Part shown: piece by piece, positions 1 to 55,900 of the stretch
How positions within the stretch are numbered: position 1 is the stretch's first letter
Layout: the number at the start of each line of letters is the position of its first letter
Origin: Candidatus Danuiimicrobium aquiferis
Lineage (GTDB): Bacteria; Omnitrophota; Omnitrophia; Omnitrophales; Danuiimicrobiaceae
DNA length: 64,000 bases
Direction: 5' to 3'
Assembly: GCA_001804285.1 (NCBI GenBank)
Contig: MHFR01000051.1
Span: 46,926-110,925 of the forward strand
Translations under genes and position numbers: made by a program
Notes under the pieces: model-generated
Seen by the model: the letters and a program-made list of their open reading frames with translations, nothing else
Database searches by the model: none
Told to the model about the DNA's origin: nothing

Positions 1-193
1 CAAGATTCTTCGGATGTTGAAAAATGTGTAATCCTAACTCTTTTGCAATCTCAACGGTCCTGTCGCTGCTTTGGTCATCTACAAGCAGGATTTCGTCTAT
101 CATATCAGTTGGGATTTCACTGACTGTTTTGCGCAAGGTTCTTTCGGCGTTGTAAGCGGGTAAAACAACGATAATTTTATGGCCGTTTAACAT
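1..193 (-). CDS. Glycosyltransferase family 2, N-terminal fragment (gene continues past the left edge)
   Basis: Reverse-strand translation from the ATG at ~191-193 gives MLNGHKIIVVLPAYNAERTLRKTVSEIPTDMIDEILLVDDQSSDRTVEIAKELGL. This is the GT2 signature (PAYN ... DDxSxD). There is no stop before the window edge, so it is absent from the ORF track. Confidence 0.6.
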   Translation of the reverse strand, partial: MLNGHKIIVVLPAYNAERTLRKTVSEIPTDMIDEILLVDDQSSDRTVEIAKELGLHIFQHPKNL

Positions 194-246
194 TATTTTA
201 GATTAATGATTGACACGATTAATTAAATTTATTAACCTGTTTCGAT

Positions 247-972
247 ATGAATCAAAATTTTTCAATTAGCTTTATTACCCCGGTTTTTAACGAGGAATAT
301 AACATCCCCAATGTCTTGAGGGATTTACATGAAATCCTTGATAAAAATCCTCACTGGAACGCCGAAGTCATCGTTATTGAAGACGGAAGCAATGATAATA
401 CCCGAAATAGCCTCCTTGAAGCAATAAAAAAATATCCTAAAACACAGCTTATTTTACATGATAAAAACCAGGGATATACCTGCTCGTTAAAAGACGGTAT
501 GGCGATTGCCAAAGGACAATATTTAATGTACGTCGGCGCCGATGAGGAATTCGATTGTTCGGAGATTCCGTCATTTGTCGAACCGATGCTAAGGGGCGAG
601 GCCGATGTTGTGCTCGGCGTCCGTTGGCAACGAAACGCCTATAAGTTATTCCGCTTTTTTCTTTCGGTTATTTATATATTTTTGCTAAATTACCTGTTTA
701 AATTACGGATCAATGACTACAACTGGTCGCAAGCATGGAGTAAAGAGCTGATTAATAAAATTCAAATCCGATCTAAATCCTTATTTGTCTTGCCGGAAAT
801 TATCATCAAAGCCCATGACCTAAAATATAAAATCAAAGAAGTCCCGTCGAATCACCGCGGTCGGCATTGGGGCAAGTCTTCAGTCAATATGGGGATCATG
901 GGATTTGCGTTCCGGGAAGCGATTGAATTTTGGCTGATCCGGAAGTCGAAGAAGTACGATCCGCTAAAATAG
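247..972 (+). CDS. Glycosyltransferase family 2 (polyprenyl-phosphate sugar synthase-like)
   Basis: ISFITPVFNEEYNI ... VIEDGSNDNT is a GT2 N-terminal motif. The 3' end overlaps the convergent gene 896..2881 by ~77 nt. Confidence 0.75.
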   Translation: MNQNFSISFITPVFNEEYNIPNVLRDLHEILDKNPHWNAEVIVIEDGSNDNTRNSLLEAIKKYPKTQLILHDKNQGYTCSLKDGMAIAKGQYLMYVGADEEFDCSEIPSFVEPMLRGEADVVLGVRWQRNAYKLFRFFLSVIYIFLLNYLFKLRINDYNWSQAWSKELINKIQIRSKSLFVLPEIIIKAHDLKYKIKEVPSNHRGRHWGKSSVNMGIMGFAFREAIEFWLIRKSKKYDPLK

Positions 973-2881
973 CAGAATCCCGCAAACGATATATTTCTAT
1001 AATCTGGCCGTTTTCCGTTCGATTGATCAGTTCCTTCCACAAAAACGGGCCGCCGGTCATTGCTTCATGGTCAAATGCCCAAGCAATCGTTTCGTCTTTG
1101 TAGGGCGAAAATCGCTTAACAAGTAAAGCGTTTTTAGTAAGCGCCGAACGAAATTCTTTATTAAGTTCAGGCTGCATTGCCGGCAAAATGACATAGTGGA
1201 CTCCCTCCCTGCGAAGTGTATCGATTGAATATGGAAGCTCCGGTGAAGCAAATAAAAAACTTTCGCCGACAGTTCGGCCGGTTAGAAAAAACAATTCATA
1301 AGCCGGCTTGTTTGACGTTTGCTGGTTGTGAATCAAAATCTCCAGCCTCTTTTTCTGGCTTTCGGAAAAAAATCGCCTTTCCTTTAAACGGCCCATTTTT
1401 TCAATTAATTGTTTTAAATTCATGCCGAGGCGGGGCGTGAAAAATGGAGCCCCTAACGCAATTTTCGAATCAGCGGGAATGTTTAGCTCAACCCACCGGG
1501 CAGCTTCCGTACGGACATCTTCCCTCGCAAACAGCCGATCGGAAAGAATTGATTTCACAAGTGACGGTGCGGCAATTATTAATGCAATCAATATCATTAC
1601 GAATTTACCATAGCGATTGTTGTCTTCGTAATAAGTTCCGCTGCTTCTCATTCCCTCGTTCAGCGAAGCAGCACCGCTCCGTATGTGTTGTGCGCCGGGA
1701 TCCGTGGATTCCCGCTTGCGCGGGAATGACACGATATTCGCGATTCGCTCTAATGCAAGTGTGGCAAGAATGAGTAAAAAAGGAATAATCGGCAGAACAT
1801 AACGGTCATAGGGTTGCCCCTTGAAGACGATCACGGCATAATAGGCTAAAACGAATGACAAAATGATTATTTGTTTTTTGTTTTTAGAAATCAAAGCAAG
1901 AATGCTTCCTGCCGCCGAAAAAACAAGGATTAAATAGCCGACTCCTTCATGTAGTGAATAAGTAAGATGGTGAAGCCACCCCATGAATCCGTGAACCGTT
2001 GATTCGCCGAGTGTTTCGGCAAGAAAAAAATGCCAGTCGAGGAAGACGTACGGATTCAGGACAAAAAACGTCACCGCGCTTATAATAAAGGCGATTAACA
2101 GATTAATTATATCTGTCATTCCCACCCGCTTCGTCCGCGAAGCGAGGCGAGCATGCTTCAGGCGGGAATCTAAAAAGCTCAAAAGGGGACAGGCACAAAT
2201 TTCGTGCCTGTCCCCTTTTTGGTTAACATGCGCAAACATAAACGGAACGAGCAGAAACACGCCGTTATATTTGACTGCCACGGCAAGCCCCAGCAGAAAA
2301 CCGAATTTAACATAATGGCGAAAGTTTCGTTCTTCAGAGATCCTCAAGATCAAATCCATTGCCGAAACCAAAATAAGAATCAACGGAATATCCGTATAAA
2401 TATAATGAGAATCGCGGACATGCAAAAAATTAACCGCAAGAAAAAAACTGCTTAACAGCGCGATTCCTTTTCCGAAATGTTTTTTACATAATCGGTATAA
2501 AAAATAAACAGTGAACGTTCCTATTACCGCTCCGAAAACAATCCGAGCAATTAAGTAAAATGAAGTCGGGTCAGTCACAAACAATTCAAGAAAGGCATCT
2601 TTCCCTGCAATCGCACCGCTAAGTCGAAGAAGAACAAAATAAATCCCGTAGCAAATGAACAACAAATAACTCACGAACGGCGGGACCTTGAAGAAATGCG
2701 GATTGAGGTCTCCGGAACCATATGCCAATGCATGGTTTACGACAATCGGCTCGTCGGCATGGTATTGATAAGGAAGGCCAAAATTGATACCCCAAAGGCG
2801 GAGAGCAAGAGCGAGGAGCAATATGAAGAAGATTGTGAGTTGAGCTCTATTTGAAGGGTACTGATTCTCGCTTGCGATCAT
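896..2881 (-). CDS. GT-C family membrane glycosyltransferase (ArnT/PMT-like, GT39/GT83-like), with two in-frame family-A repeat insertions
   Basis: N-terminus LRLWGINFGLPYQYHADEP is followed by many TM helices and a C-terminal soluble domain. Two stretches, ~1650-1731 and ~2115-2220, are copies of the dispersed GTCATTCCCGC...GCGGGAATGAC repeat. They are read in-frame as ...SFPRKRESTDPGAQHIRSGAASLNEGMRS... and ...ICACPLLSFLDSRLKHARLASRTKRVGMTD... . The call may really be a disrupted gene or two or three fused ORFs. Confidence 0.6.
   Translation of the reverse strand: MIASENQYPSNRAQLTIFFILLLALALRLWGINFGLPYQYHADEPIVVNHALAYGSGDLNPHFFKVPPFVSYLLFICYGIYFVLLRLSGAIAGKDAFLELFVTDPTSFYLIARIVFGAVIGTFTVYFLYRLCKKHFGKGIALLSSFFLAVNFLHVRDSHYIYTDIPLILILVSAMDLILRISEERNFRHYVKFGFLLGLAVAVKYNGVFLLVPFMFAHVNQKGDRHEICACPLLSFLDSRLKHARLASRTKRVGMTDIINLLIAFIISAVTFFVLNPYVFLDWHFFLAETLGESTVHGFMGWLHHLTYSLHEGVGYLILVFSAAGSILALISKNKKQIIILSFVLAYYAVIVFKGQPYDRYVLPIIPFLLILATLALERIANIVSFPRKRESTDPGAQHIRSGAASLNEGMRSSGTYYEDNNRYGKFVMILIALIIAAPSLVKSILSDRLFAREDVRTEAARWVELNIPADSKIALGAPFFTPRLGMNLKQLIEKMGRLKERRFFSESQKKRLEILIHNQQTSNKPAYELFFLTGRTVGESFLFASPELPYSIDTLRREGVHYVILPAMQPELNKEFRSALTKNALLVKRFSPYKDETIAWAFDHEAMTGGPFLWKELINRTENGQIIEIYRLRDSAILADRTSSTSGSAKIQSLPGTQIP
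1650..1731. repeat. Family-A repeat element (degenerate first hairpin + intact second hairpin) inside CDS 896..2881
   Basis: ...CGCCGGGATCCGTGGATTCCCGCTTGCGCGGGAATGACAC. It is read in-frame by the host ORF. Confidence 0.7.
2115..2220. repeat. Family-A-like element plus a strong terminator-like hairpin inside CDS 896..2881
   Basis: GTCATTCCCACCCGCTTCGTCCGCGAAGCGAGG...GGCGGGAATC at 2115-2170. A 12-bp perfect stem GGGGACAGGCAC-aaatttc-GTGCCTGTCCCC then follows, with TTTTT at 2185-2220. Confidence 0.7.
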
Positions 2882-2910
2882 ATTGTAATTTTATCATTCC
2901 CGTGTAGTTC

Positions 2911-2990
2911 TCCTCCCCCTTAATGGGGGAGGACAGAGGTGGGGGTGCGCCCCCCATCCTAACCTTCCCCCACACGGGGGGAAGGAATCT
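2911..2990. repeat. Family-C G/C-rich palindromic repeat (intergenic, between the GT2 and GT-C genes)
   Basis: TCCTCCCCCTTAATGGGGGAGGACAGAGGTGGGGG, followed by TTCCCCCACACGGGGGGAAGG. A near-identical copy is at 32183-32217: CTTCCTCCCCTTGATGGGGGAGGACAGAGGTGAGGG. Confidence 0.65.
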
Positions 2991-3007
2991 ATTACGGTTC
3001 GATTTCC

Positions 3008-3727
3008 TCACACATCATTGATATGCATTACTCGAATTTTAATCAAATCAAAAAACATTTTTATGGGATCCGCCACAACATTCACTTTGCTGGCCGTGGA
3101 ATTTCTCCAAATGACGGGGATCTCAGCGACCTTGAATCCTATCTTCTGGGCCAAGTAAATCACTTCAACGTCGAAGGAAAATCCATCAAGTTTTTGTAGG
3201 GAAAATATTTTTTTCGCGGCTTCCCGTTTAAAACATTTAAAACCGCACTGAGAATCTTTAATTCCTTTAAACGTCAATAGCCGCGCGATTTTATTGAAAA
3301 TTTTCCCCATTAATTCCCGGAAAAAGTTCTGACGAATTTCCACCTTAGAATTCGGAAGCGCCCGCGAGCCAATAGCGACGTCAAATCCATCCTCTAACTT
3401 TGCAATTAACCGCAACGCTTCCTCAATCGGTGTCGACAAATCGGCATCACTAAAAAGAATATAATCACCGGTGGCCTCAAGAACGCCCCGTCGAACGCTA
3501 TACCCCTTTCCCCGGTTCTTCTCGTTCCGCAAAAGCCTGTGCGTTTCATTTTCCCCGCCGCAACAATTTAGCACCACTTCGCATGTCCGGTCGCTGCTGC
3601 CGTCATCCACAACAATGATTTCATGTTCGATATTTATATTTCGAACAAAACTATGAATTGTTTCAAGAGACTTTCCGATCCGTTGTTCTTCGTTGTAACA
3701 AGGGATAACAATCGATAATTTTATCAT
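3008..3727 (-). CDS. Glycosyltransferase family 2 (dolichyl/polyprenyl-phosphate mannose synthase-like)
   Basis: MIKLSIVIPCYNEEQRI ... VVDDGSSDRT is a GT2 motif. Length is 239 aa. Confidence 0.8.
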   Translation of the reverse strand: MIKLSIVIPCYNEEQRIGKSLETIHSFVRNINIEHEIIVVDDGSSDRTCEVVLNCCGGENETHRLLRNEKNRGKGYSVRRGVLEATGDYILFSDADLSTPIEEALRLIAKLEDGFDVAIGSRALPNSKVEIRQNFFRELMGKIFNKIARLLTFKGIKDSQCGFKCFKREAAKKIFSLQKLDGFSFDVEVIYLAQKIGFKVAEIPVIWRNSTASKVNVVADPIKMFFDLIKIRVMHINDV

Positions 3728-3731
3728 TCTA

Positions 3732-4697
3732 TCATCTCAACATGTCGTTTAACGTTTGCCTCAGCGGAATTCGGGGCTCCCAACCACTCAATTGTTTCAT
3801 TTTGCCGGAAGCGAGTGCCATTCTTAGAATTTCATCTTTTGAAGTAAATGCCTCGTTTTTCCGCACTTTGATTTTTTCAATCTTCGAAAGTTCAATTATT
3901 TCCTTTAGGGCATGCCCGATCTTTACAGGCTTCCCGCGGCCGATATTGTAGGCTTCTCCCGGTTTCCCTTTTCCGCTGACCTCTGAAATAGCCTGAATTG
4001 CATCTCTCACGTCAATATAATCCCGGCTCGCTGAAAGGTTGCCGACGTCAATGATGGGCTTTTGTTTTCCAAGAGAGATATTTTTGATTTGATAGGCAAA
4101 ATTCGCAATTGAAAATGTCTTCGATTGATTTCGGCCGACGATATTGCATGGCCGGACGACGCAAATATTAAGTTTGAAATTCTTGGCATAAATTCTCGCA
4201 AAAGAGTCCAAAGCGGCCTTGCTAATGCTATATGGATCCTTGGGTTCCAACCGGTCGCTTTCAAATACTTTTTGTTTGTGATTGTGAGTCTCGCCATAAA
4301 TAGTCCCCGATGAAAAAATAATAATTTTTGACCGCAAAGCCAATTTTTTTGCGATCTCCAAAAGATTAATTCCTCCCACCAAATTAATATTGATGGTCTC
4401 GACCGGATTTGCCCAGGATAAACGAACGGAACTTTGCGCGGCCAGATAATAAATATAATCGGGCTTGATCCGTGCAACCAATCGTTCCATTCCCTGGCGG
4501 TTTCGGACGTCGAGTTGAAACATTCTAACGGAACCCGAAAGTGAAAAACCTTTTTTGTGATGGCGATGATAAGTTCCGAAAACGACTTGGTTCCGCGAAC
4601 ACAAGTCTTTTGCGATTTCGCTTCCCAAGAAACCGGTTGATCCGATTAGGAGGTGTTTTTTACATTTAGCCATTGGCGAGGACTTTAATATCTTCAT
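3732..4697 (-). CDS. NAD-dependent sugar epimerase/reductase (short-chain dehydrogenase fold), likely a GDP-4-keto-6-deoxymannose reductase/epimerase partner of Gmd
   Basis: GSTGFLGSEIAKDL is a Rossmann GxxGxxG motif. It lies immediately downstream of gmd and overlaps it by a few nt. The ORF-track start at 4700 is a TTG codon; the first ATG is at 4695-4697. Confidence 0.65.
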   Translation of the reverse strand: MKILKSSPMAKCKKHLLIGSTGFLGSEIAKDLCSRNQVVFGTYHRHHKKGFSLSGSVRMFQLDVRNRQGMERLVARIKPDYIYYLAAQSSVRLSWANPVETININLVGGINLLEIAKKLALRSKIIIFSSGTIYGETHNHKQKVFESDRLEPKDPYSISKAALDSFARIYAKNFKLNICVVRPCNIVGRNQSKTFSIANFAYQIKNISLGKQKPIIDVGNLSASRDYIDVRDAIQAISEVSGKGKPGEAYNIGRGKPVKIGHALKEIIELSKIEKIKVRKNEAFTSKDEILRMALASGKMKQLSGWEPRIPLRQTLNDMLR

Positions 4698-5631
4698 CAA
4701 CCATTAAATAAACCAGTTCTTCGAAACGCATCTTCGGCTTCCAGCCCAGCACGCGCCGCGCTTTCAAAGCGTTTCCGCAAAGAATATGTAATTCCGTTGG
4801 CCTGACAAGCTTTTGATCGGTTTCGACATATTTTTTCCAGTTAAGCCCGACGTGGTTAAATGCAACTCTCGCGAAATCCTCAACCGTGTGAGCTTCGCCC
4901 GTCGCAACCACATAATCGTCCGGTTTTGGCTGTTGAAGCATCTTCCACATTGCTTCAACATAATCGCCGGCAAATCCCCAATCCCGCTTCGCCTTTAGGT
5001 TACCGAGTGTCAGTTTTTTTTCCAGACCCAATTTGATTTTTGCAACACCCACTGAAATTCTTCGAGAAACAAATTCCTTCCCTCTCCGCGGCGATTCGTG
5101 ATTAAAAAGGATTCCGGAGCATGCAAACATATGGTAGCCTTCCCGGTAAATCACGGTCATCCAATGCCCGTAGGTTTTAGCAACCCCGTAAGGATTTCGC
5201 GGCCGAAGCGGTGTCGTTTCGCTTTGGGGGGTTTCCGCGACTAATCCGAACATTTCGCTCGAAGATGCCTGGTAGAATCGGATTTTTTTGTCGACAAGCC
5301 GAATGGCTTCGAGGATTCGCGCAACGCCTTGCGCTGTAAACTCACCCGTCAACGTTGGCTGTTCAAAGGATGTCGGCACAAACGATTGAGCGGCTAAATT
5401 ATAGACTTCGTGAGGTTTTACCGTTTGTATTAAACGGATGAGAGACATCTGATCAAGCAAATCACCTCGCACCAGTTCTATTCTGCCCATCAGATGGTTA
5501 ATTCGCTCGAAATTTTCCGTACTCGAACGGCGAACCATGCCATAAACTTCATAATCCTTGGTCGCTAATAAGTCGGCCAAATAAGATCCGTCCTGTCCCG
5601 TCACTCCGGTGATAATCGCTCGTTTTTTCAT
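4666..5631 (-). CDS. gmd: GDP-mannose 4,6-dehydratase
   Basis: [22 protein letters not shown] matches the canonical Gmd N-terminus. Length is 321 aa. The ATG at 5629-5631 overlaps the upstream gene's stop (ATGA). Confidence 0.9.
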
Positions 5632-6575
5632 TCTGCCCTCGCCTGAGTTTGTTTAAAATATTCAATGGCCGCCAGCAAGCCCTTTCGGACATCGACTTTC
5701 GGTGCCCATTTCAGAATTTCTTTTGCCCGCCGGATATCCGGATTTCTGACTTTGGGATCATCTTGTGGGAGGACACGATATTCAATTTTACTTTTTGAAC
5801 CCGTCAACTCAATAATCAATTTTGCAAGTTCACCGATTGTCATTTCATCATGTGGGTTGCCGATATTGACCGGCAAATTGAAATTTGAAAACAAAAGCCG
5901 CTGAAGCCCGTCCACCAAGTCGTCAACGTACGTAAAACTTCTTGTTTGTTTCCCGTCGCCGAAAATGGTGATGGGGTTTCCCTTCAGTGCCTGATCGATG
6001 AAATTAGGAATTGCCCGTCCGTCATTATGACGCATTCGCGGCCCGTAGGTATTGAAAATTCGGACAATTTTGGTATCGATACCATGTGTCCGGTGATAGG
6101 CAAGCGTAATGGCTTCCGCGAACCGTTTTGCTTCATCATAAACACCGCGCGGGCCGATCGGATTGACATTCCCCCAATAATCTTCATGCTGAGGGTGAAT
6201 AAGTGGGTCGCCATAAACCTCCGAAGTCGACGCGAGTAAAAAAACCGCTTTTTTAGCTTTCGCGAATCCAAGCGCGTTGTGGGTTCCGAGTGAACCTACC
6301 TTAAGTGTTTGAATCGGATATTTGATATAGTCGGCCGGGCTGGCCGGCGAAGCAAAATGGAGGACATAATCGACAGGCTCATCTACTTTGATTGTTTTTG
6401 AAACGTCATGATTTGTATATATAAAACGATTACAGGTTTGAAACGGCGCAATATTTTCCGGATTTCCAGTTAGCATGTTATCGAGGCAAATGACGCGCTC
6501 GCCTTTTTTTAAGAAATAGTCACACAGGTGTGAGCCGATAAAGCCTGCGCCGCCTGTAATTAAAAATGTTTTCAT
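5628..6575 (-). CDS. uxs: UDP-glucuronate decarboxylase (UDP-xylose synthase)
   Basis: [33 protein letters not shown] ... fits the UXS/ArnA-decarboxylase family pattern. Length is 315 aa. Confidence 0.8.
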
Positions 6576-6642
6576 CTCAAATCTCTCTCTGATATTGTCA
6601 TTACGTTCTAAAGCTCAATTTAGAAGCAGGTTCATAAAGTCT

Positions 6643-6718
6643 GTCATCCCCGCGAACGCGGGGATCCAGTAGAACCTAAAGACAACTTGGCTGGATTCCC
6701 GCTTTCGCGGGAATGACA
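6643..6718. repeat. Family-A palindromic repeat element (twin hairpins, ATTCCC-N8-GGGAAT core), intergenic uxs/rmlD
   Basis: GTCATCCCCGCGAACGCGGGGATCC ...spacer... GGATTCCCGCTTTCGCGGGAATGACA. The termini TGTCAT...ATGACA are inverted. Confidence 0.8.
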
Positions 6719-6755
6719 TAAGAACACAATTTTATTTGCATGCCCAGCATCTTTT

Positions 6756-7640
6756 TCATTGTAAGTATTCTCTCAACGCTTCCTGCCAAGGCCTTAAAGG
6801 TTTCCCAGTTAATGATTGATACTTCTCAAGGCTTAAAACTGAATAAGCCGGCCTCATGGCTGGCCTTGCGAGCTGTTCTGTTGTCATTGCACTGACTTTA
6901 ACGTTTCGTGCTTTTATCTTTAGAATTTCCTTCGCGAAATCACACCACGACGTTTCGCCGTCATTGGCAATGTGGACGATTCCGTGAATCCTATACTCAT
7001 CTGCCCGTTTGCAATAAGCCAATAAATTCTCGATTCCTTCGGCTAAATCAACCGTATAGGTTGGCCGACCGACTTGATCTGCTACGACAGCTAATTCGGA
7101 TTTTAAGTCTGAAAGTTTCAGAATCGTATCGACGAAATTCTTTCCGTTTTTACCGTAAAGCCACGATGTTCGAACAATAGTATACCGTTTCGCTTTTGAT
7201 TTAACATCATTTTCTGCCTCCAGCTTGCTCTGGCCGTATACACTCAAAGGAGTCGGTATATCGCCCTCGTTGTATTGCGTTTTCTTTTTTCCGTCAAAAA
7301 CATAATCGGTGCTGATCAAAATGAAGTATGCATTAATCGCTAAACAAGCATCAACGACGTTTTTCGCCCCTTCAAAATTAATTGCAAATGCTTTCTCGCG
7401 ATTGGTTTCGCAGCCATCGACATCTGTATAAGCGGCTGTGTGAATCACTATGTCGGGCCTAATATCCTCAATTTTAATGAAAACGTCGGCTCGATTGGTG
7501 ATGTCTATCTGAGATGAAATCACACCGGACCTTGACTCGCCGCGATCGCTCAATCCAAAAAGCTCATGTTTTCCCGTCAGTTGCCTAACCAAACCAGTCC
7601 CAAGCATGCCGTCATAACCAGTAATTAATATTTTCATCAT
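6756..7640 (-). CDS. rmlD: dTDP-4-dehydrorhamnose reductase
   Basis: MKILITGYDGMLG ... ISTDYVFDGKK is the RmlD signature. Length is 294 aa. Confidence 0.85.
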   Translation of the reverse strand: MMKILITGYDGMLGTGLVRQLTGKHELFGLSDRGESRSGVISSQIDITNRADVFIKIEDIRPDIVIHTAAYTDVDGCETNREKAFAINFEGAKNVVDACLAINAYFILISTDYVFDGKKKTQYNEGDIPTPLSVYGQSKLEAENDVKSKAKRYTIVRTSWLYGKNGKNFVDTILKLSDLKSELAVVADQVGRPTYTVDLAEGIENLLAYCKRADEYRIHGIVHIANDGETSWCDFAKEILKIKARNVKVSAMTTEQLARPAMRPAYSVLSLEKYQSLTGKPLRPWQEALREYLQ

Positions 7641-7665
7641 TCGAAACCTTTTTCTTCGGGAAGGC

Positions 7666-8643
7666 TTATTTTAAGGTATACCGATCCGCTTTTAACTTTC
7701 GCCACCAGGCTTCGTTTGCGCGGTACCAATCAATGGTTTTGCGGAGATTGTCGTGAATGGTTGATGTGATTTCGAAGCCAAGAGCTTCAAGTTTAGACAT
7801 ATCCAGGCTATACCGGAAATCGTGAGCGAGACGGTCTTTCACATATTGAATCATCTCTTCGCCTTTTCCGAATTCTTTTAAAATCATTCCCGTTAATTCA
7901 ATATTGCTTAATTCACATCTGCCGGCAACATTATAAATTTCGCCGATTTTACCGTGTTCGAAAACAAAACTGACCGCTCTTGCCGTGTCTTCGACATATA
8001 ACCAATCTCTTACATTTCCCCCTTTTGCGTATAAAGGGACCTTTTTCCCTTCAATTAAGTTCGTAATAAAGAGCGGAATCACCTTCTCCGGGAAATGATA
8101 CGGGCCATAGTTATTTGTGCAGCGCATAATGATGACCGGAATGCCGTGTGTTTTGTGATAGGCAAGCGCAAGGAGGTCGCTCGCTGCTTTTGCTGCCGAA
8201 TAAGGGCTGCTGGGGTCAAGTGGAAAGGTCTCAGTAAACGATCCCTGTTTGATTGACCCGTAGACTTCATCAGTCGAAAAATGGATAAATCTCTTAAGTT
8301 TCGCGTTCTTTGCGGCATTTAATAATGTGTTCGTTCCCAGCACATTGGTGCGAACAAATTCATCGGGTGAATCAATCGACCGGTCGACGTGCGTTTCTGC
8401 GGCAAAGTGAATGACGGAATCAACGCGGCTCATGAGGGATTTTACCAATTCGGCATTGCAGATATCGCCGTGGACAAATTCATAACGCGGGTTTGTTTCG
8501 TGTTCGACCGTGTTCGACCGCAGGCCGGCGTAGGTCAGTTTATCGAGATTGATAACGGAAATATCTTTGAACTTGTTCAGGAAATATCTGAGGAAATTCG
8601 AGCCGATAAAGCCCGAACCACCTGTCACTAAAACGCGGTTCAT
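7666..8643 (-). CDS. rmlB: dTDP-glucose 4,6-dehydratase
   Basis: MNRVLVTGGSGFIGSNFLRYF ... YGPYHFPEKVIPLFITNLIEGKKVPLY is the RmlB signature. The start overlaps the rmlA stop by 1 nt. Confidence 0.9.
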   Translation of the reverse strand: MNRVLVTGGSGFIGSNFLRYFLNKFKDISVINLDKLTYAGLRSNTVEHETNPRYEFVHGDICNAELVKSLMSRVDSVIHFAAETHVDRSIDSPDEFVRTNVLGTNTLLNAAKNAKLKRFIHFSTDEVYGSIKQGSFTETFPLDPSSPYSAAKAASDLLALAYHKTHGIPVIIMRCTNNYGPYHFPEKVIPLFITNLIEGKKVPLYAKGGNVRDWLYVEDTARAVSFVFEHGKIGEIYNVAGRCELSNIELTGMILKEFGKGEEMIQYVKDRLAHDFRYSLDMSKLEALGFEITSTIHDNLRKTIDWYRANEAWWRKLKADRYTLK

Positions 8644-19960: not shown

Positions 19961-20470
19961 GTGGAACAAAAACAATTTGTTAAAACACTGAATGGTTTGG
20001 CCGGGAATCAAAAGTCCGGATTTACATTAGCCGAACTTTTGGTTGTCACTGTGATTGTTGGAATTTTGGGGATCCTTTCTATTCCGAAGTTTTATGCCCA
20101 AATCGAAAAGGCGAAAATATCTCAGGCTTTGGGTGTTTTATCGGCCATTCAAAAAAACGAGAAAATTTATCGCGCTGAACATGGTTATTACAAAGCATTA
20201 TATGAGATAGCAAGTACCGCAGATTGGGGAGGGATCGGAATGATGGATCCTTCTCCGTTTCTGCTTTCATCGCCCGATGGTGAGTTTAAGTATGAATTCC
20301 GCTTCTTAATGGACTCATATGGATATTTTGCGTTTGCAACACGCACAACGAAAAATGATTATAAAGGATATTCGGGTAAAAGAATTCGGGTTCGGCATTC
20401 TGACGGAAAAGCGGTCTGTAGCGCTGATCAATCTGACCACCCGTTGATTCCATTTTCAGCGTGTTGGTAG
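19961..20470 (+). CDS. Type IV pilin / pseudopilin paralog 1 (prepilin-type N-terminal cleavage/methylation domain)
   Basis: The ~20-aa leader ends ...NQKSG|FTLAELLVVTVIVGILGILSIPKF, a class III signal with Glu at +5. The C-terminal motif is CSADQSDHPLIPFSAC. Start is a GTG. Confidence 0.75.
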   Translation: MEQKQFVKTLNGLAGNQKSGFTLAELLVVTVIVGILGILSIPKFYAQIEKAKISQALGVLSAIQKNEKIYRAEHGYYKALYEIASTADWGGIGMMDPSPFLLSSPDGEFKYEFRFLMDSYGYFAFATRTTKNDYKGYSGKRIRVRHSDGKAVCSADQSDHPLIPFSACW

Positions 20471-20489
20471 ATTTGATAAAATGAGGTGA

Positions 20490-21002
20490 TTGACAGTGAA
20501 AAAAAATATATTGTACACCGTATTAAAAAACAAAAAAAAAGCGGTGTCAGGCTTTACACTTGCCGAACTTTTAATTGTTACTGTGATTGTGGGAATTTTA
20601 GGGATTATTTCTATGCCGAAGTTTTATGCCCAAAAGGAAACGGCGAAAATATCGGAAGCTTTAAGTATTTTATCAGCAATTCGTCAAAATGAGCGAGCTT
20701 ATTTTCTTGAAAAGGGCTCTTACAAAATAATAGTTCCTAACGCAAATGCGACAGATTGGGGGGAGATCGGAATGCTGGATCCTTCTCCGGATCCGCCCGC
20801 AGGTGAGTTTGACTATGAATTCAAATCCGGGGAGGAGGGGATATACTATGCGTTCGCAACACGCACGGCAAACAATAATTATATGGGATATGCTGGTAAA
20901 TTCGTTCGGGTTCGGGATAGCGATGGAAAAGCTGTCTGTTCTGCTGATACCGATCACCCTTTGATTTCCGATTCAGCGTGTTTGCAGCCTTGGCCGAGTT
21001 GA
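20490..21002 (+). CDS. Type IV pilin paralog 2
   Basis: ...KKKAVSG|FTLAELLIVTVIVGILGIISMPKFYAQKE, with C-terminal CSADTDHPLISDSAC. GAGGTGA RBS at ~20484; the true start is probably the GTG at ~20496. Confidence 0.75.
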   Translation: MTVKKNILYTVLKNKKKAVSGFTLAELLIVTVIVGILGIISMPKFYAQKETAKISEALSILSAIRQNERAYFLEKGSYKIIVPNANATDWGEIGMLDPSPDPPAGEFDYEFKSGEEGIYYAFATRTANNNYMGYAGKFVRVRDSDGKAVCSADTDHPLISDSACLQPWPS

Positions 21003-26500: not shown

Positions 26501-26677
26501 ACGGCAATCACATGGTATGCAGACGGATTGAATAGCTATCCGTACAAGACAAGTTACTATGTGGCACCGAATCGAAAGTTCAGATATAACGGCCAACGAA
26601 TGGTTATGGATCCGCCGCCCGGAACTCCGGGTACGTTTGCGATGATAAAAAAAGAATCGACCGAGAAAATCTATTAG
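23552..26677 (+). CDS. Large PilX-N-domain protein (1042 aa), putative pilus tip/minor-pilin adhesin with a Cys-rich C-terminal region
   Basis: AAAGGAGA RBS at ~23533-23540, then the ATG at 23552. The N-terminus KRNSRNANTFGFALLYAIFLAIAVEIGIIG is a PilX-like hydrophobic N-domain. The C-terminal third carries many Cys in short spacings (CYCTDTEWDNDAC, CPGENTICPDGTVCQG, CNSCETPPACTCYQGQAC). No PilY1 beta-propeller signature was recognised. Confidence 0.6.
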   Translation: MAKGQEVLINQNPAIMKARSKRNSRNANTFGFALLYAIFLAIAVEIGIIGSLYTMARHQREVQTDLNRVQMRMLNVSAVNEVLRNFKEYLGTHPNFPQHDVNSEVHDFDNPLSSWYNNASTGFKNRYSHVSGFFDLDLSNLKVRKVAESDGGGVWWREYEISSRVKSLWVPMQSEIKQKVRISNGKLFDFSIFSNVDLEIQGGPSFDLQGPIFSNGNIYLMNNPGSLLKLLRPSNIDSPESREPYIMRAAGNIYFGQNRAFAPNYLLTNAGYSQNVPSEYTDPLNNGLEINVAMDLSSYLPVFRFAPFIYHFNNGTSFKTASGGTPGNSPEVCVQNNQNCVWVDTGGTFTKLVPYHPPMKSITWFYPSYGSRYYTVVAGSQYGEPSSQGFISMSNAVDINNYPGIDPAWTPAAPTTYSPPVNPSWQNSLFNGSGGQSDVIAQGMPTRSIPIGDPVNPSGAHLLIEPIMDSDTTAIKESKFQQKAIDFGSGIGFNIHCLKSEILEPIYVAIYDCADAQYISPDFQALIDLNVAQYQNTASFFDFRIASPRTYISIDINKLLQFYPQAKMIYVRLLNGLMAPFSKPPRALRIINAKRLPKTGLTIATNGRIYIQGNYNTYLYENADGSSRMAADGTTLCQDIPAEDSDSGNAAPCYCTDTEWDNDACAPPPAAIFSDSFVALSSNWSDTYTSTMPPVEGRLASDTIINVGIATGIRRSQLLNSTYFSTSCVADMSNCEANGTWLSPDDSTTYYRGSDKSYYYVNKCSGKYLTAYATSKAKAGGDTTSTKLPPPPVTDLNDPAPECEAYNAKTATEKYNADSWRLPIFTDMIRQPGGEYSWKDHKSDSAPVPVRAFKGVYFRRLNSSRIFFDGTICVLSGPCPGENTICPDGTVCQGTRGMINNSRCTLVSAETGAYSCNSCETPPACTCYQGQACDPNAANFDPTVVYGGDYYYNLYTVEYSGGLENVVNLQENWAGKSLRFLGTTAITWYADGLNSYPYKTSYYVAPNRKFRYNGQRMVMDPPPGTPGTFAMIKKESTEKIY

Positions 26678-26715
26678 CCCGGATTTCTCATCACTAATGA
26701 GAGATTCCGCTTTGT
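26676..26715. repeat. Family-B fragment forming a hairpin just 3' of the 1042-aa pilus protein gene
   Basis: TTAGCCCGGATTTCTCATCACTAATGAGAGATTCCGCT matches 39603-39640. The internal palindrome is TCTCAT-cacta-ATGAGA. Confidence 0.6.
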
Positions 26716-32182: not shown

Positions 32183-32217
32183 TTCCTCCCCTTGATGGGG
32201 GAGGACAGAGGTGAGGG
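32183..32217. repeat. Family-C palindromic repeat, intergenic pncA/pncB
   Basis: CTTCCTCCCCTTGATGGGGGAGGACAGAGGTGAGGG. Confidence 0.65.
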
Positions 32218-32259
32218 AAATCTGTTAATCACTTCAAAACACTAAATAATTACCCAATA

Positions 32260-36544: not shown

Positions 36545-36860
36545 TTCTAAAAATCCGAATTCCCGAATATCGCCCGCCACAAAGAGTTGGCGGGTCCGCC
36601 ATGTTGTGTGGTGGAACATCCGAAACAAGCCCTAAATTCGAATACCTCAATATTTTAAATAACTTTTGTGATATTTGAATTTTGGATTTCGGATTTGCTT
36701 CGGATTCCGTAATTTCGTGCTTCGAAATTAACCTAACAAACCCTATGCGAATTTGTGAAACAAGGTAATGATAACCTGCGCCCGCCCCGCATAAAACACG
36801 CGGGACAGGTTGTCCGCCACTAAAGCTTAGGCGGATCCACCAACGATTTGTGGTGGACAA
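36545..36860. repeat. Family-B related composite repeat region adjacent to tRNA-Arg
   Basis: It shares TCCGAAACAAGCCCTAAATTCGAAT (reverse complement of 39822-39847), ATATTTGAATTTTGGATTTCGGATTTG (reverse complement of ~39545-39590) and TTTCG.GCTTCGAAATTAACC with the right copy. Short CCGCCAC..N..TGGCGG hairpins also recur at 36569-36600, 36812-36840 and 37323-37350. Confidence 0.65.
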
Positions 36861-38394: not shown

Positions 38395-38560
38395 TGCGAG
38401 CGAAAAGTTGCTAACCCGACCTTCTCATCGATTTTGCGACTCAACGAGAAGGCCGCTTTTGGCGTAATATGTTGCGCCAAAAGTTTTGCGCGCTTGTTAA
38501 ATCAGGGCTTACGAGCGGAATTTCTTATTGGGGATGAGAAATCCGGGCTAACAGTACGCT
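38395..38560. repeat. Family-B repeat, left copy (inverted orientation), immediately 3' of the ROK kinase gene
   Basis: Its reverse complement aligns with 39597-39800: TTAGCCCGGATTTCTCATC..AATAAGAAATTCCGCTCGTAAG / CCCTGATTTAACAAG.GCGCAAAACTTT.G.GCGCAAC ... CAAAATCGATGAGAA.GTCGGGTTAG. Confidence 0.75.
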
Positions 38561-39519: not shown

Positions 39520-39870
39520 GATGCTTCTTAATTCGCAAAATGCCGAAAAATCCGAATTCGCGAATACCAAAATCCGAAATCTCAAATTCAAATATCACAA
39601 AAACTGTTTTAGCCCGGATTTCTCATCGCTAATGAGAAATTCCGCTCGTAAGAGCTGTGGCGCAAAGATGGTTTGCATCTTTGCGACGCAGGGCTTATCT
39701 TTTGCACCCTGATTTAACAAGGGCGCAAAACTTTGTGCGCAACTGATTGCGCCCAAAGCGACTTTCTTGTCGATTCACAAAATCGATGAGAAAGTCGGGT
39801 TAGAAATTGAGACATTCGAATTTAGGGCTTGTTTCGGATTTCACAATTTCGCGTTTCGAAATTAACCTTG
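39520..39870. repeat. Family-B repeat, right copy, immediately 5' of the ROK kinase gene. It carries a ~55-bp internal insertion relative to the left copy
   Basis: ...AAAATCCGAAATCTCAAATTCAAATATCAC ... TTTTAGCCCGGATTTCTCATCGCTAATGAGAAATTCCGCTCGTAAG ... CCCTGATTTAACAAGGGCGCAAAACTTTGTGCGCAAC ... CAAAATCGATGAGAAAGTCGGGTTAG ... ATTCGAATTTAGGGCTTGTTTCGGATTTCAC. Confidence 0.75.
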
Positions 39871-43350: not shown

Positions 43351-43364
43351 CCTGACCGATTTTT

Positions 43365-43492
43365 GTCATTCCCGCATGTTTTAGGCGGGAATCCATTGTA
43401 CCAATAGATGCTAATTGACTTATGGATCCCCGATTCCCTGGAAATACAGGGCCGGCCCTCGTCTTACCGAGGGAAAGCATTCGGGAATGACA
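43365..43492. repeat. Family-A repeat element (long variant), between the hypothetical gene and gspF
   Basis: GTCATTCCCGCATGTTTTAGGCGGGAATCC ... GGATCCCCGATTCCCTGG...CCCTCGTCTTACCGAGGG...CATTCGGGAATGACA. Confidence 0.75.
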
Positions 43493-44725: not shown

Positions 44726-44740
44726 CGCAATTTAGTTGAT

Positions 44741-44875
44741 GTCATGCCCGCACGCTTAAAGCGGGCATCCACAGCTTCTGGATTCCCGCTTTCGCGGGAA
44801 TGACAAAGAAACATATGCCCTTTTACAGATAATTGCTTCAAAGTATTAAACAAATACAGTTATTTAGCCTTCTCT
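44741..44875. repeat. Family-A repeat element + conserved ~55-bp extension, between gspF and the secretin
   Basis: GTCATGCCCGCACGCTTAAAGCGGGCATCCACAGCTTCTGGATTCCCGCTTTCGCGGGAATGACAAAG, then ...CCCTTTTACAGATAATTGCTTCAAAGTATTAAACAAATAC. It is near-identical to 50770..50905. Confidence 0.8.
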
Positions 44876-50769: not shown

Positions 50770-50905
50770 CCAGGTTCGTGTCATGCCCGCATGCTTAAGG
50801 CGGGCATCCACAGTTTCTGGATTCCCGCTTTCGCGGGAATGACAAAAAATCAGAGGCCCTTTTACAGATAATCGCTTCAAAACGCTAAACAAATACTGCC
50901 ATTGA
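50770..50905. repeat. Family-A repeat element + conserved extension, between merR and gspE
   Basis: GTCATGCCCGCATGCTTAAGGCGGGCATCCACAGTTTCTGGATTCCCGCTTTCGCGGGAATGACAAAA ... CCCTTTTACAGATAATCGCTTCAAAACGCTAAACAAATAC. Confidence 0.8.
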
Positions 50906-50920
50906 AGTGATTACTAAAAT

Positions 50921-50967
50921 CCCCTCACCCCTACCCTCTCCCCGTGGGAGAGGGTAGGGGTGAGGGC
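50921..50967 (-). terminator. Perfect 21-bp-arm GC-rich palindrome directly 3' of the gspE stop (candidate intrinsic terminator / family-C repeat)
   Basis: CCCTCACCCCTACCCTCTCCC cgtg GGGAGAGGGTAGGGGTGAGGG. On the minus strand it is followed by ATTTTAGTAATC. Confidence 0.4.
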
Positions 50968-52681: not shown

Positions 52682-52835
52682 GAATCAACCCGTTGGTTAT
52701 GATGATATGATGAGCTTTGTGTTTCAGAATTACAATTTTGACAATTTAACCTGAACCCCTCATTAAATCAAGAAAAAAGTGCCCAATCAAAGCCATGACA
52801 CCCTTGATTTAAATTTTGTGTTTTGCAAAATTTAT

Positions 52836-52907
52836 GTCATTCCCGCAAGCTTTAAGCGGGAATCCAGAAAAAATATGGATCCCCGATAGAAACATTCGGG
52901 GATGACA
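52836..52907. repeat. Family-A repeat element, between gspE and the giant gene
   Basis: GTCATTCCCGCAAGCTTTAAGCGGGAATCC ... GGATCCCCGATAGAAACATTCGGGGATGACA. Confidence 0.8.
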
Positions 52908-52971: not shown

Positions 52972-55900
52972 TTATTTCTTTTCCGGCGGTTTCATTTCAG
53001 CCGGCATTTCTTTCCATGTAACAATCCTCAAATTCCGGCTCCCGACGGATCCGAAATTAATAACGCCCCTCTTTTCAGAAACAGTGACGGCCGATTCCGG
53101 CATCACAGCCGCACCCACGTAAATCGTTTCAACGGCCGAAGATTTCATCTCGAAAGTACAAACTCCATTTTTCATCACAAATTCCGTTTGCTTTGGCAGC
53201 GTTAACGACGGAAGCAGCGAATCTCCGGTTTGCCCGACCGGCTTTCCTTCCGGCAAATAATATTGAACTGTCACACGCGTCGAATCGGTTTTAATCACTT
53301 GCCCCTTGGAATCAACCACCTTTATCGTCACCTTCACCGGCTCGTTCAGCGCTCCGTAAGACGATTCAATCACGATAGTCGCTTTAACCACCTCTGCTTT
53401 AGGAGACGATTCTCCCTCGGCATCAGCATCCTCGGCTGTAATTGAAAACTCAGGCAAATCTCCGGGCCCGATGATGTTGAAAACGTGGATCCCCTGATCA
53501 GAACCTGTAAATTCATATTCTTCGGGTAGCCCCAACTCGACTCCGGAAGATAGTCCAATCTTCCCGGCATAGTTCGTGATTGCCTGATTATTGAAATCAA
53601 ACGCACTCACGGTTGCCGTGAATTTCTCTCCGTCATAATAAGTATAAAGATCAGCTTGTGCCCGCGAAGCATCCGCCGGCTTTGAAAGCTCGATCTGAAA
53701 CTTGGAAGCAACAAACGAGACGGATTCGGATGTTCCGAAAAGCAATTCCGGATATTGTGTATCGATTACTTTCAAAGATACTTCCCCCCAGGCGTTAAAC
53801 CGGTTGGTCAATGTAACGGTACCGTTTGATATTGAACTCAAATTGGTTACGGCAAGATTTTCGACTGTTCCGCCGTCTTCAGTCACAACCGTCACATCTG
53901 CTGCGCCGTCATAATTCGAAGTCACTTCCCCGCTTTGATTTACCGCCGTCACCGTCATTTCAAAATCTTTCCCGACGGCGAATGATTTTTCATCTACCAC
54001 CACTTTATATTCATACGGAATAACCGTGAGATTTCCCGAGACGCCCTTAATCACCCCGTCCGCGCTGTCACTTGCCAGCACTTGAATGATTCCGGCATCG
54101 TCATATTGAAGCGAGGCCGTGGCAATCCCGCCTGAAAAGTTGGACACGACGGCCGGCACGAACTGCTTGGTCCCGGCCGTAGGGTTAATATATTGCACTC
54201 CCAAATTGGCCGTTCCGCTGTAAGACACAACCGCTTTATTTCCGCCCGCCCCGGTTTCAACAGCAGAAATCCTTACATCAAACGGCGTGCCGGCTTTTAC
54301 CAGTCCTTGAGTGAGAAGTTCTATCAAATAACTCACTGAACCAAAAGTCACCGTATCCGTGCTGGTATCCGTACTGTCATTCGAATCCGTATAGGTCACC
54401 GTCACCAAATCTCCTCCGCCGCTCACCTCAAGGGTCCCGTTATCTACATGCCCCGTCCGGTTTTGTACGGTCGGAAATGGATTATACGGTACGGAACTCG
54501 TATTGATGAAAATACCGCTATCGACATCGCTTTCAAGCAAGTTAATTTCCTCAGAATCGCCTGTTGCCGGATTGCTCACCGTTACTTTGATCGCATCTTT
54601 AACTAACGGATCCCGATTCCGGTCCGCATCCAGAACTTTCACATAGACATAGTCACCGATCGAATAATTCGACACTTCGATTCCGCTCACATTCACAAAA
54701 TGGATCTCCGATCTGGTTGAAGTCACAGTAATTTCACTTGATAAAACGGGGGCGATTAAATCATTCCCGACCAGTTCCGCTTTCAATTTAATCACGCCGC
54801 CTTCGTTGTAAGACACGTTTGAAAAAGTGGCCACACCGCCGGTGACGGTGATCGTGTTATCTTCATCGAGTGCACTTGATGACAAAGTCCCCGGAGCTAC
54901 GGTTGTTCCGTCCGAAGCCAAAACTGCCGTCAGCTTAATCCGGGAGATTGAATCCGAAGAAATGGCGTTTCCGGCTTCGTCCAAGATCGAAACCACCGGC
55001 TGAGTCGTAAATACACTTCCAGCAAAAATCGATGCCGGGGCCGGTGCGGTCGAAAACTGGATTGCCGAGGCGGTCAGTGAACCGACCACAAGATCTAAAT
55101 CATAATCGGCGCTTCCCGTCGAATCATACGTCCCGTCACTTGCATCCAAAGAGACCGTTTCGGCAGTATAGAGCGTTACATCCGTTTCCGCCTTACAACT
55201 TCCTCCGCCGCACAGAAAATCCAGCAACGTCGAAGAGCCGATATTGACCACAATCCCGTTCTTGTCCCGCGCAAAAGGCGTTTTCCCGTTCGTTGCCGTC
55301 GGGCCGCTAAACGTAATGGATTTTTCCCCGGAATAAGTCGCTAAAATCGGAACGCCGCCATTGTCGTATGGCGTGACGCGGACCGTTATCGTATTTCCGC
55401 TTGCGATCGTTCCCGGACTCGTAGACGTCACCACGAAATGGTCGAGGGATTGATGGAATAGCCAATTCGTATTATTTCCCGAATTGGTACCGCTATAGCA
55501 ATCAATTATTTTTTCCGATTTTTGATCTTTGACGTCCACATCGAAACACGCAAACGTTCCTGTTCCGGACCACAACCGCTGAACGCCTTCCACCGTCGAC
55601 CGGATTTTAATTACATCGGAATCTCCGCCGCCGGAAGCGCCGCCCGCGCCGTTCAGACTCACTGTTCCCGCATTCACGAGCCCGCCTTCACCGATCGTAA
55701 TGGTGGCTTCGTCCGATGAACTGCCGCCCGCATGGGTCCATGCGCCGTCTGTTTCAATCACCACTTTATAAGCATTTAACTCAACATTTTCCTCCTGAAC
55801 CAGTTCGCCGTCTAAAATGGTGAGTGTCCCATTCACCACCAGATTTTTTGTGGACACATTCACATCGTCCGCATCGCCAACGCCTGACTTTTCGATCACT

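Follow-up and report, generated by a model that had tools for sequence, protein, structure and literature searches.

In-frame CGTC-type repeats and a terminator-like palindrome inside an open GT39 glycosyltransferase gene, probably from an Omnitrophota bacterium

Repetitive extragenic palindromes (REPs) of the CGTC type, described by Di Nocera, De Gregorio & Rocco (2013, BMC Genomics 14:522; PMC3733652), carry a terminal CGTC (TGTC/CCTC) tag, a stem of 8-9 bp starting with A and T, a loop of 4-5 nt (other lengths in some families) and a 3-nt tail that is mostly CCA, and they form head-head dimers. They are mostly intergenic, between unidirectional or convergent open reading frames (ORFs); intragenic REPs, single or dimeric, encode 20-30 amino acids (aa), at times two per ORF, and no dedicated transposase was found for this type (PMC3733652). 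The CGTC-1 family includes Neisseria dRS3 and the Rickettsia palindromic element RPE-6 of Rickettsia conorii, and RPE-4 is CGTC-4 (PMC3733652). A 2024 review covers in-frame Rickettsia palindromic elements (RPEs) as well as terminator-like repeats such as SPRITE (PMC10969869). Here we analyse a 64,000-nt stretch of contig MHFR01000051.1 (positions 46,926 to 110,925; hereafter the window), in which repeats of this kind, called family A, are read in frame within a gene for a membrane glycosyltransferase of family GT39. In-frame palindromes that add peptide are already known from Rickettsia and other bacteria, and the GT39 gene is a clear new example.

A first-pass annotation of the window had noted that the GT39 ORF reads through two family A copies (~1650-1731 and ~2115-2170) and a strong hairpin next to the second copy. 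We place the two copies at 1646-1731 and 2114-2170/2172, and the codon-to-DNA mapping shows that the hairpin, a REP singlet and a REP dimer are all translated in the GT39 frame. The host gene and the features within it are as follows.

896-2881, minus strand: GT39/PMT_2 ORF of the GT-C glycosyltransferase fold, 661 aa (Pfam, orthologue alignments, AlphaFold2 and Foldseek).
1646-1731, minus strand: CGTC-type REP head-head dimer (copy B), with a canonical unit at 1705-1731 and a degenerate partner at 1646-1704; translated as V384-R412 (VSFPRKRESTDPGAQHIRSGAASLNEGMR).
1610-1720, minus strand: insertion B as delimited by protein alignment, aa 388-424, in the loop between transmembrane (TM) helices H359-384 and H423-451.
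2114-2172, plus strand: CGTC-type REP singlet, TGTC ATTCCC..GC ATGCTTCAG GCGGGAAT C; translated on the minus strand as D238-T256 (DSRLKHARLASRTKRVGMT).
2124-2150, no strand assigned: probable nested insertion of 27 nt, ACCCGCTTCGTCCGCGAAGCGAGGCGA, itself a small hairpin, in the left stem of the REP singlet.
2181-2219, no strand assigned: terminator-like palindrome AAAAGGGGACAGGCAC-N7-GTGCCTGTCCCCTTTT, translated as Q221/K222-L234 (KGDRHEICACPLL); unique in the window.
896-973, minus strand: C-terminal extension of ~25 aa (aa 637-661) with the stop codon (alignment and AlphaFold2).

The host gene, which the first-pass annotation had likened to ArnT and PMT, matches the Pfam models PMT_2 (7e-14, 52.7 bits, cut-off 26.1) and PMT (2e-10, 41 bits, cut-off 22.7). 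An AlphaFold2 (AF2) model built from an alignment of 85 sequences (the query and 84 orthologues) has a mean predicted local distance difference test score (pLDDT) of 87.5 and a predicted template-modelling score (pTM) of 0.88, and a Foldseek search with this model retrieved ALG12, STT3, ArnT, PglB and Pmt4, each with a probability of 1.0. Among the 439 relatives found by database search, those listed are mostly ~560 aa long and 39-45% identical over 91-96% of the query, and those with a named source are Omnitrophota/Omnitrophica GT39 proteins. The Pfam matches, the orthologue coverage, the AF2 model and the Foldseek hits therefore agree that the gene is a full-length GT-C glycosyltransferase. 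In the H-A-D-E-P motif of the first periplasmic loop, H41, D43, E44 and P45 are invariant and A42 is nearly so in one alignment (A1), and in a second (A2) all five are nearly invariant (>=90%) and kept in the query. When the insertions are set aside, the query agrees with the consensus in 96.7% of the columns conserved at >=90% among the 84 orthologues, which equals the orthologue median (rank 48 of 85), and its mean identity to the other sequences is 45.9% (orthologue range, 43-51%). No second GT39 copy was found in the window.

The ORF is ~100 aa longer than the ~560-aa orthologues. Alignment with orthologues, a check proposed in the first-pass annotation, places extra peptide relative to the 84 proteins exactly where the repeats lie, in predicted loops: aa 226-232, 240-259 and 388-424 occupy columns that are filled in <10% of the orthologues, and the block 388-424 is absent from the orthologues inspected. 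Equally sparse are the columns of the C-terminal segment, aa 637-661, which runs past the C-terminus of all 84 orthologues, has pLDDT <50 from aa 647, and is encoded where the 3' end of the GT39 ORF overlaps that of a convergent GT2 gene (247-972, plus strand) by 77 nt; a stop codon may have been lost here.

The family A repeats are sharply defined. In the window, GGGAATGACA occurs 25 times with <=1 mismatch, compared to 4.7 occurrences expected, and none of 100 shuffles reaches 25. A structural search recovered 14 canonical units, each consisting of TGTC, an 8-bp stem (ATNCCCNN), a loop, the complementary stem and a 3-nt tail. The TGTC tag starts 14/14 units, the 8-bp stem is AT-initiated with 0-1 mismatch in 14/14, and the tail is CCA in 13/14 (CTA in unit 2114-2172); the loops are of 4 nt in six units (GAAA, GAAC, GCAA), of 9 nt in another six, and large in the two that hold nested insertions. 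Four compensatory stem variants are present (ATTCCCGC/GCGGGAAT, ATCCCCGC/GCGGGGAT, ATGCCCGC/GCGGGCAT and ATCCCCGA/TCGGGGAT). Judged by its sequence features, all of which agree apart from the loop length in half of the units, family A is a CGTC-type REP. No direct repeat indicative of target-site duplication was found beside any of 8 family A copies, which separates the family from miniature inverted-repeat transposable elements, and the GTAG (GT[AG]G) tag that defines GTAG REPs and REPINs (paired REPs folding as one hairpin) is not on family A, which carries TGTC.

As the first-pass annotation had stated, these repeats are otherwise intergenic: 12 of the 14 units lie outside genes and 2 inside the GT39 ORF. 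The 12 make up six full head-head dimers with the TGTC tags on the outside, all between co-directional minus-strand ORFs, and each folds as one long hairpin (z = -6.4 to -7.9). Because stop-to-stop ORFs of >=150 aa cover ~93% of the window, so that 12/14 units fall within the ~7% outside long ORFs, the intragenic copies are exceptional.

Within the gene, the canonical unit of copy B reads TGTC ATTCCCGC GCAA GCGGGAAT CCA, 27 nt with a perfect stem, and its partner is degenerate, with the head GAGA, 3 stem mismatches and a large loop. The RNA fold of copy B is no longer significantly structured (z = -1.7 vs -6 to -8 for the intergenic copies); the palindrome has thus decayed while the ORF stayed intact, and the gene has therefore survived with this insertion for some time. 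The singlet comprises a 30-nt unit with a 9-nt loop and a nested 27-nt hairpin. The nesting is suggested by comparison with units 50779-50810 and 43364-43395: removal of positions 2124-2150 would turn unit 2114-2172 into a perfect 30-nt unit with a 9-nt loop. Each of the two copies, as predicted, supplies an in-frame methionine from its terminus, M255 and M411, both encoded by GGA ATG A.

Two further observations concern the repeats in the window as a whole. Small hairpins are nested in the stem or loop of REP units, both in the intragenic singlet (27 nt) and in the intergenic unit 43423-43492, which has a 47-nt loop; further small palindromes would thus seem to target the REP hairpins themselves. 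The REP dimers at 44735-44864 and 50774-50903 are 87% identical over 130 nt, including ~60 nt of flank beyond the dimer, so that the duplicated unit there exceeds the dimer itself.

The AF2 model places both insertion sites in low-confidence coil, with mean pLDDT of 54-57 in 10-residue blocks over aa 221-250 and of 49-57 over aa 391-420, between helices predicted with pLDDT >90 (H205-219 and H247-275 for the singlet and the hairpin, hereafter insertion A; H359-384 and H423-451 for insertion B). To assign a topology, we started from the C-terminal soluble domain, which the GT39 fold places after the last TM helix and in the periplasm, and counted the membrane passes backwards. The insertion loops hold 8 and 7 lysine and arginine residues and the 5-residue loop 332-336 holds 3, whereas the loop 276-312, which has the conserved NP..D and HH..YS residues, holds none. 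Pass parity and this charge pattern together place both insertion loops in the cytoplasm, on the predicted face opposite to the H-A-D-E-P loop and the periplasmic domain. As with RPEs, the elements lie within a conserved ORF, in frame, free of stop codons and absent from orthologues, and AF2 predicts a fold-compatible site for both, in low-pLDDT loops between confident TM helices.

The third element is the hairpin upstream of the singlet in the sense of the gene. Its perfect 12-bp stem, reported in the first-pass annotation together with T-runs on both strands, is borne out: the arms GGGGACAGGCAC and GTGCCTGTCCCC lie at 2185-2196 and 2204-2215 around a 7-nt loop, and with the A/T flanks the hairpin reaches 18 pairs (2181-2219), followed by T-runs on both strands. 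On the minus (sense) strand it consists of 18 pairs, 9 of them GC, around a loop of 3, and CCCCTTTT is followed by the tail GAGCTTTTTA; 136 nt around it fold with z = -6.8, and it is the strongest-scoring terminator-like site in positions 1-8000. That it terminates transcription is an expectation from its sequence alone. Rfam, run on 800-3100, returned only sub-threshold miRNA-like hairpin matches far below the gathering scores.

The hairpin arm is widespread. We scanned metagenome contigs of the Joint Genome Institute (JGI) for two arms 3-9 nt apart (loci L131-L250) and found palindromes of the arm GGGGACAGGCAC in at least 120 stretches (126 hairpins), with varying loops and flanks; the window hairpin thus belongs to a second family of palindromic repeats instead of being an isolated terminator. 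Among the matches listed, contig GC content ranges from 43 to 72%, and A/T-run flanks like those of the window copy accompany 9/126 hairpins. Some samples (Ga0193712, Ga0163150) contribute many copies among the matches listed, and some members (L131, L141, L157 and L192) form the core of much longer perfect palindromes. GTAG tagging, suspected from some members with CGCG loops, was rejected as a general feature of this family: a GTA flank is present in only 7/126 of the hairpins listed, and that of the window copy is AAAG. No description of the GGGGACAGGCAC motif was found in the searchable literature, where GGGACAGGCAC and GTGCCTGTCCC returned only unrelated eukaryotic primer sequences.

Insertions of this kind recur in orthologues. 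Four orthologues have extra peptide in the insertion loops, and we fetched the DNA of each. In the loop that holds insertion A, P0090 has a complete in-frame CGTC...GACG dimer of a palindrome type other than that of family A (ATTGCGAGG...); P0003 has in that loop, also in frame, a TGTC-tagged, partly degenerate ATTGCGAGG-type dimer; and P0097 carries an in-frame CGTC...GACA dimer in the cytoplasmic loop preceding it. The ATTGCGAGG motif is also present at unrelated loci. In the fourth, P0004 (L011), the extra peptide is in the same loop and no tagged palindrome is recognisable in the DNA, and we left this case uncounted. Because these cases were ascertained from intact proteins, they show tolerance, not insertion frequency.

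The elements are likewise read in frame in other genes. GTDB species genomes contain the window unit TGTCATTCCCGC-N4-9-GCGGGAATCCA in at least 119 stretches (loci L012-L130), and the matches listed span many phyla, including Omnitrophota, Planctomycetota, Nitrospirota, Chloroflexota and Patescibacteria, along with a Nanoarchaeon and a Rickettsia endosymbiont. Among genomes of low GC content, the exact unit lies in frame, as a full dimer, in a class I tRNA synthetase gene of the Rickettsia endosymbiont, and in frame in an N6/N4 DNA methylase gene (Nanoarchaeota) and in PrmC (Patescibacteria), all three genes being confirmed by Pfam. Within an ORF of the O-antigen-ligase family (Wzy_C) the unit precedes the Pfam match, and in a histidine kinase of an Omnitrophota metagenome-assembled genome it is close to the C-terminus, with a peptide, VSFPRKRESTNPG, that is almost that of insertion B. 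The phyla with a verbatim CGTC-1-like unit far exceed the five listed for CGTC REPs in 2013. As for the hairpin family, most of the matches listed are on contigs of 65-72% GC, where long spurious ORFs are common, and therefore only low-GC, Pfam-confirmed cases were used: the A/T-flanked hairpin is in frame in an MqnA/D-like gene, inside a Pfam match spanning the whole model, and also in a PAS/GAF sensor gene.

The identity of the elements, their absence from orthologues, the intact conserved ORF and the recurrence in orthologues and other genes support best, and in our judgement make probable, the reading in which peptide-adding insertions were tolerated in frame. This was one of three readings offered in the first-pass annotation, which drew the parallel with RPEs, and it is the one that has gained, as family A fits the CGTC REPs, to which RPE-4 and RPE-6 belong. 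The GT39 gene would have taken up three small, non-autonomous palindromes that are read through as protein: a CGTC REP head-head dimer, a CGTC REP singlet with a nested mini-hairpin, and a terminator-like palindrome of the second family. Each insertion would keep the frame and bring no stop codon in the frame used, and the protein would gain ~29 aa in the cytoplasmic loop between H359-384 and H423-451 and ~13 + 19 aa in that between H205-219 and H247-275. The added peptides, basic in composition and disordered by prediction, would lie opposite the periplasmic active site. The intragenic copies would then be a survivor set: REPs normally persist between genes, and within genes only the in-frame, stop-free copies in permissive loops would escape purging. 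The enzyme most likely still folds and works, and transcription would pass the hairpin, probably aided by translating ribosomes; we also infer the mechanism by which the elements spread.

Several points weigh against tolerated insertion. Three hits together with the C-terminal extension could also be read as relaxed constraint. The singlet (57 nt, that is, 30 + 27) and the hairpin (39 nt) have lengths that are multiples of 3; the dimer, of 86 nt, is not a whole number of codons, which calls for an additional change of 1-2 nt or for native sequence having been replaced. Since no close relative (all are <50% identical) and no empty site was found, the insertions are undatable and their boundaries are not fixed to the nucleotide. 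The recurrence was drawn from full-length proteins only, so that out-of-frame cases would be missed. Finally, read on the sense strand, the hairpin makes a textbook intrinsic terminator, with UUUUGAGCUUUUU after 12 G+C-rich pairs; with its palindrome still perfect, it may have arrived recently and may already lower the amount of full-length mRNA.

The gene DNA is identical on 18 contigs from several samples, runs and assemblers, which we count in favour of tolerated insertion, and the seven loci that we fetched have identical gene DNA; P0001 (99% identical, 660 aa) represents this gene too, its start diverging at a contig edge. The search for insertion-free alleles suggested in the first-pass annotation was accordingly fruitless, with no empty-site allele among the population contigs examined. 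Furthermore, none of the relatives found by database search is an orthologue of >50% identity, which leaves no nucleotide-level empty site and no ratio of nonsynonymous to synonymous substitution rates (dN/dS) to draw on.

The fresh disruption considered in the first-pass annotation is conceivable for the still-perfect hairpin, and we regard it as the foremost, although unlikely, alternative: the gene would have been silenced recently, with the hairpin, as the latest insertion, stopping transcription after about codon 235 and the ORF not yet decayed. The terminator-like score of this perfect palindrome, with its 18 pairs and T-run, the unusual load of three elements plus a C-terminal extension, and the lack of polymorphism by which to test selection are all compatible with such an event. 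However, all three insertions are in frame and free of stop codons. The six intergenic dimers are stop-free in 11/36 frames and three have a length divisible by 3, and the intragenic pieces are open in 4/6, 5/6 and 6/6 frames, the hairpin being the one that is open in all six; the chance that the ORF would stay open after two or three random insertions is roughly 1-5%. Moreover, the gene remained intact following at least one insertion, as is shown by the older REP copy with its decayed palindrome, and the A/T-flanked hairpin is found in frame in the MqnA/D-like gene, with its end-to-end Pfam match, and in the PAS/GAF sensor gene. Translating ribosomes can suppress intrinsic terminators within genes, which also counts against silencing.

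A more elaborate possibility, which we consider doubtful, combines two propositions: that the cytoplasmic loop between the predicted TM6 and TM7 of this Omnitrophota GT39 family is a recurrent landing hot spot for unrelated palindromic elements at the DNA level, beyond the selection filter, and that the hairpin is a translation-dependent attenuator. If this were the case, the hairpin would be a repeat-borne regulatory switch within a coding region, setting the amount of full-length glycosyltransferase.

The third of the original readings, a split gene whose two or three polypeptides restart at M255 and M411 and assemble in the membrane, is highly improbable. The in-frame ATGs follow G-rich runs (GGGTGGGA ATG and CGAGGGA ATG), and the terminator-like hairpin closely precedes the first of them, but only the ATGs themselves favour this reading. 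These Shine-Dalgarno-like runs are only ~2 nt from the ATGs, and the ATG is a by-product of the GAATGACA terminus, as it is in orthologue insertions (LAMTV in P0090). A split gene would not need a continuous frame, yet 661 codons are open, and there is no stop codon to release an upstream fragment. Native, lineage-specific loop sequence that merely resembles the repeats, or an assembly artefact, is largely refuted and the least credible of all, for although no insertion-free close relative was found and both loops vary in length among orthologues, the gene contains a 27-nt canonical unit with a perfect stem (1705-1731), another unit with one stem mismatch and a perfect 12-bp palindrome whose arm is common to at least 120 metagenome stretches, all in DNA that 18 contigs from different runs and assemblers share without a difference.

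In-frame insertion at this locus extends the known reach of in-frame REPs past Rickettsia and the Proteobacteria surveyed in 2013 to an uncultured Omnitrophota-like lineage, and its target is an integral membrane enzyme, hit in cytoplasmic loops. For annotation, it implies that extra segments of 30-40 aa such as SFPRKRES..., DSRL...GMT and KGDRH..CPL are repeat-encoded, and are neither new domains nor a sign of a pseudogene. The recurrence of different palindromes in one loop of orthologues charts where GT39 enzymes naturally accept insertions. Those who study the spread of REPs may be interested in the CGTC-1 unit and the GGGGACAGGCAC palindrome, both of which occur verbatim in many unrelated genomes, the former also in Candidate Phyla Radiation bacteria and a Nanoarchaeon. 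The GT39 case itself opens no new question and leaves existing knowledge unchanged.

GT2 genes and several epimerases/dehydratases accompany the GT39 gene in a cluster for sugar modification. One more feature adjoins the GT39 gene.

2885-2995, no strand assigned: intergenic palindromic element (GGGGGAGGACAGAGGTG... type), filling the 126-nt gap between the upstream GT2 gene (3008-3727, minus strand) and the GT39 start codon.

This element belongs to a second intergenic palindromic family (…CCTCCCCCTTAATGGGGGAGGACAGAGGTGGGGGTG… type), which is also found at 32197-32237 and 50902-50960 and thus recurs beside the REP dimer at ~50900; the copy at 2885-2995 is flanked by ATCATTCCCG…GGAAGGAATC, which resembles a disrupted REP unit. 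Elsewhere in the window, inverted repeats of ~100-150 nt, 85-90% complementary, at 38408-38554 and 39601-39806 bracket a 1.2-kb segment that holds a 345-aa ORF with the motif-level look of a ROK-family sugar kinase, and partial copies of this repeat occur at other places, including 26666-26711 and 36618-36734 (I1-I5, D11, D16). At 20014-20992 there are diverged direct repeats, ~76% identical with a period of ~520-532 nt (D1, D5, D14), which probably reflect a repeated protein domain. A giant ORF of 3664 aa with internal repeats (D6, D7, D15) occupies 52972-63966 on the minus strand, and a REP dimer (52835-52907) lies immediately downstream of its stop codon.

Compared to published terminator-like repeats, the hairpin has the same look of an intrinsic terminator, and at this locus, too, small repeats cluster and insert into one another. 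The two are, however, unrelated in sequence, and here the family consists of a bare 12-bp arm with variable loop and flanks in many unrelated metagenomic genomes. With GTAG REPs and REPINs, which are mobilised by the transposase RAYT, family A shares short hairpins, inverted doublets that fold as one hairpin, an intergenic location and the lack of target-site duplication; it differs in having no GTAG tag, and in the hairpin family a GTAG-like flank is confined to 7/126 members listed. RPEs (Ogata et al. 2000), so far as the review presents them (PMC10969869), are likewise palindromic selfish DNA, inserted in frame within functional genes, that adds peptide at fold-compatible positions. In that account, classical RPE-1 is ~100-150 bp long with a conserved peptide of its own, in contrast to the REP units of 30-86 nt seen here, and the present host is free-living or environmental and not obligate intracellular. 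The closest likeness is to CGTC-1 REPs, with which family A shares the TGTC tag, the 8-bp AT-start stem, the CCA tail, head-head dimers with variable spacers, a location mainly between co-directional genes with occasional in-frame intragenic copies, and the absence of target-site duplication. In contrast, loops of 9 nt occur in half of the present units and nested hairpins in two, the host probably belongs to Omnitrophota, a phylum outside the 2013 list, and the recipient gene encodes a membrane GT-C enzyme as opposed to the replication and repair genes stressed in the 2013 paper. As for the enzyme, it has the multi-TM core and C-terminal periplasmic domain of GT39/PMT_2 proteins (the ArnT, PMT and PglB/STT3 fold), and its excess length over them is made up of three repeat-encoded segments and a C-terminal extension.

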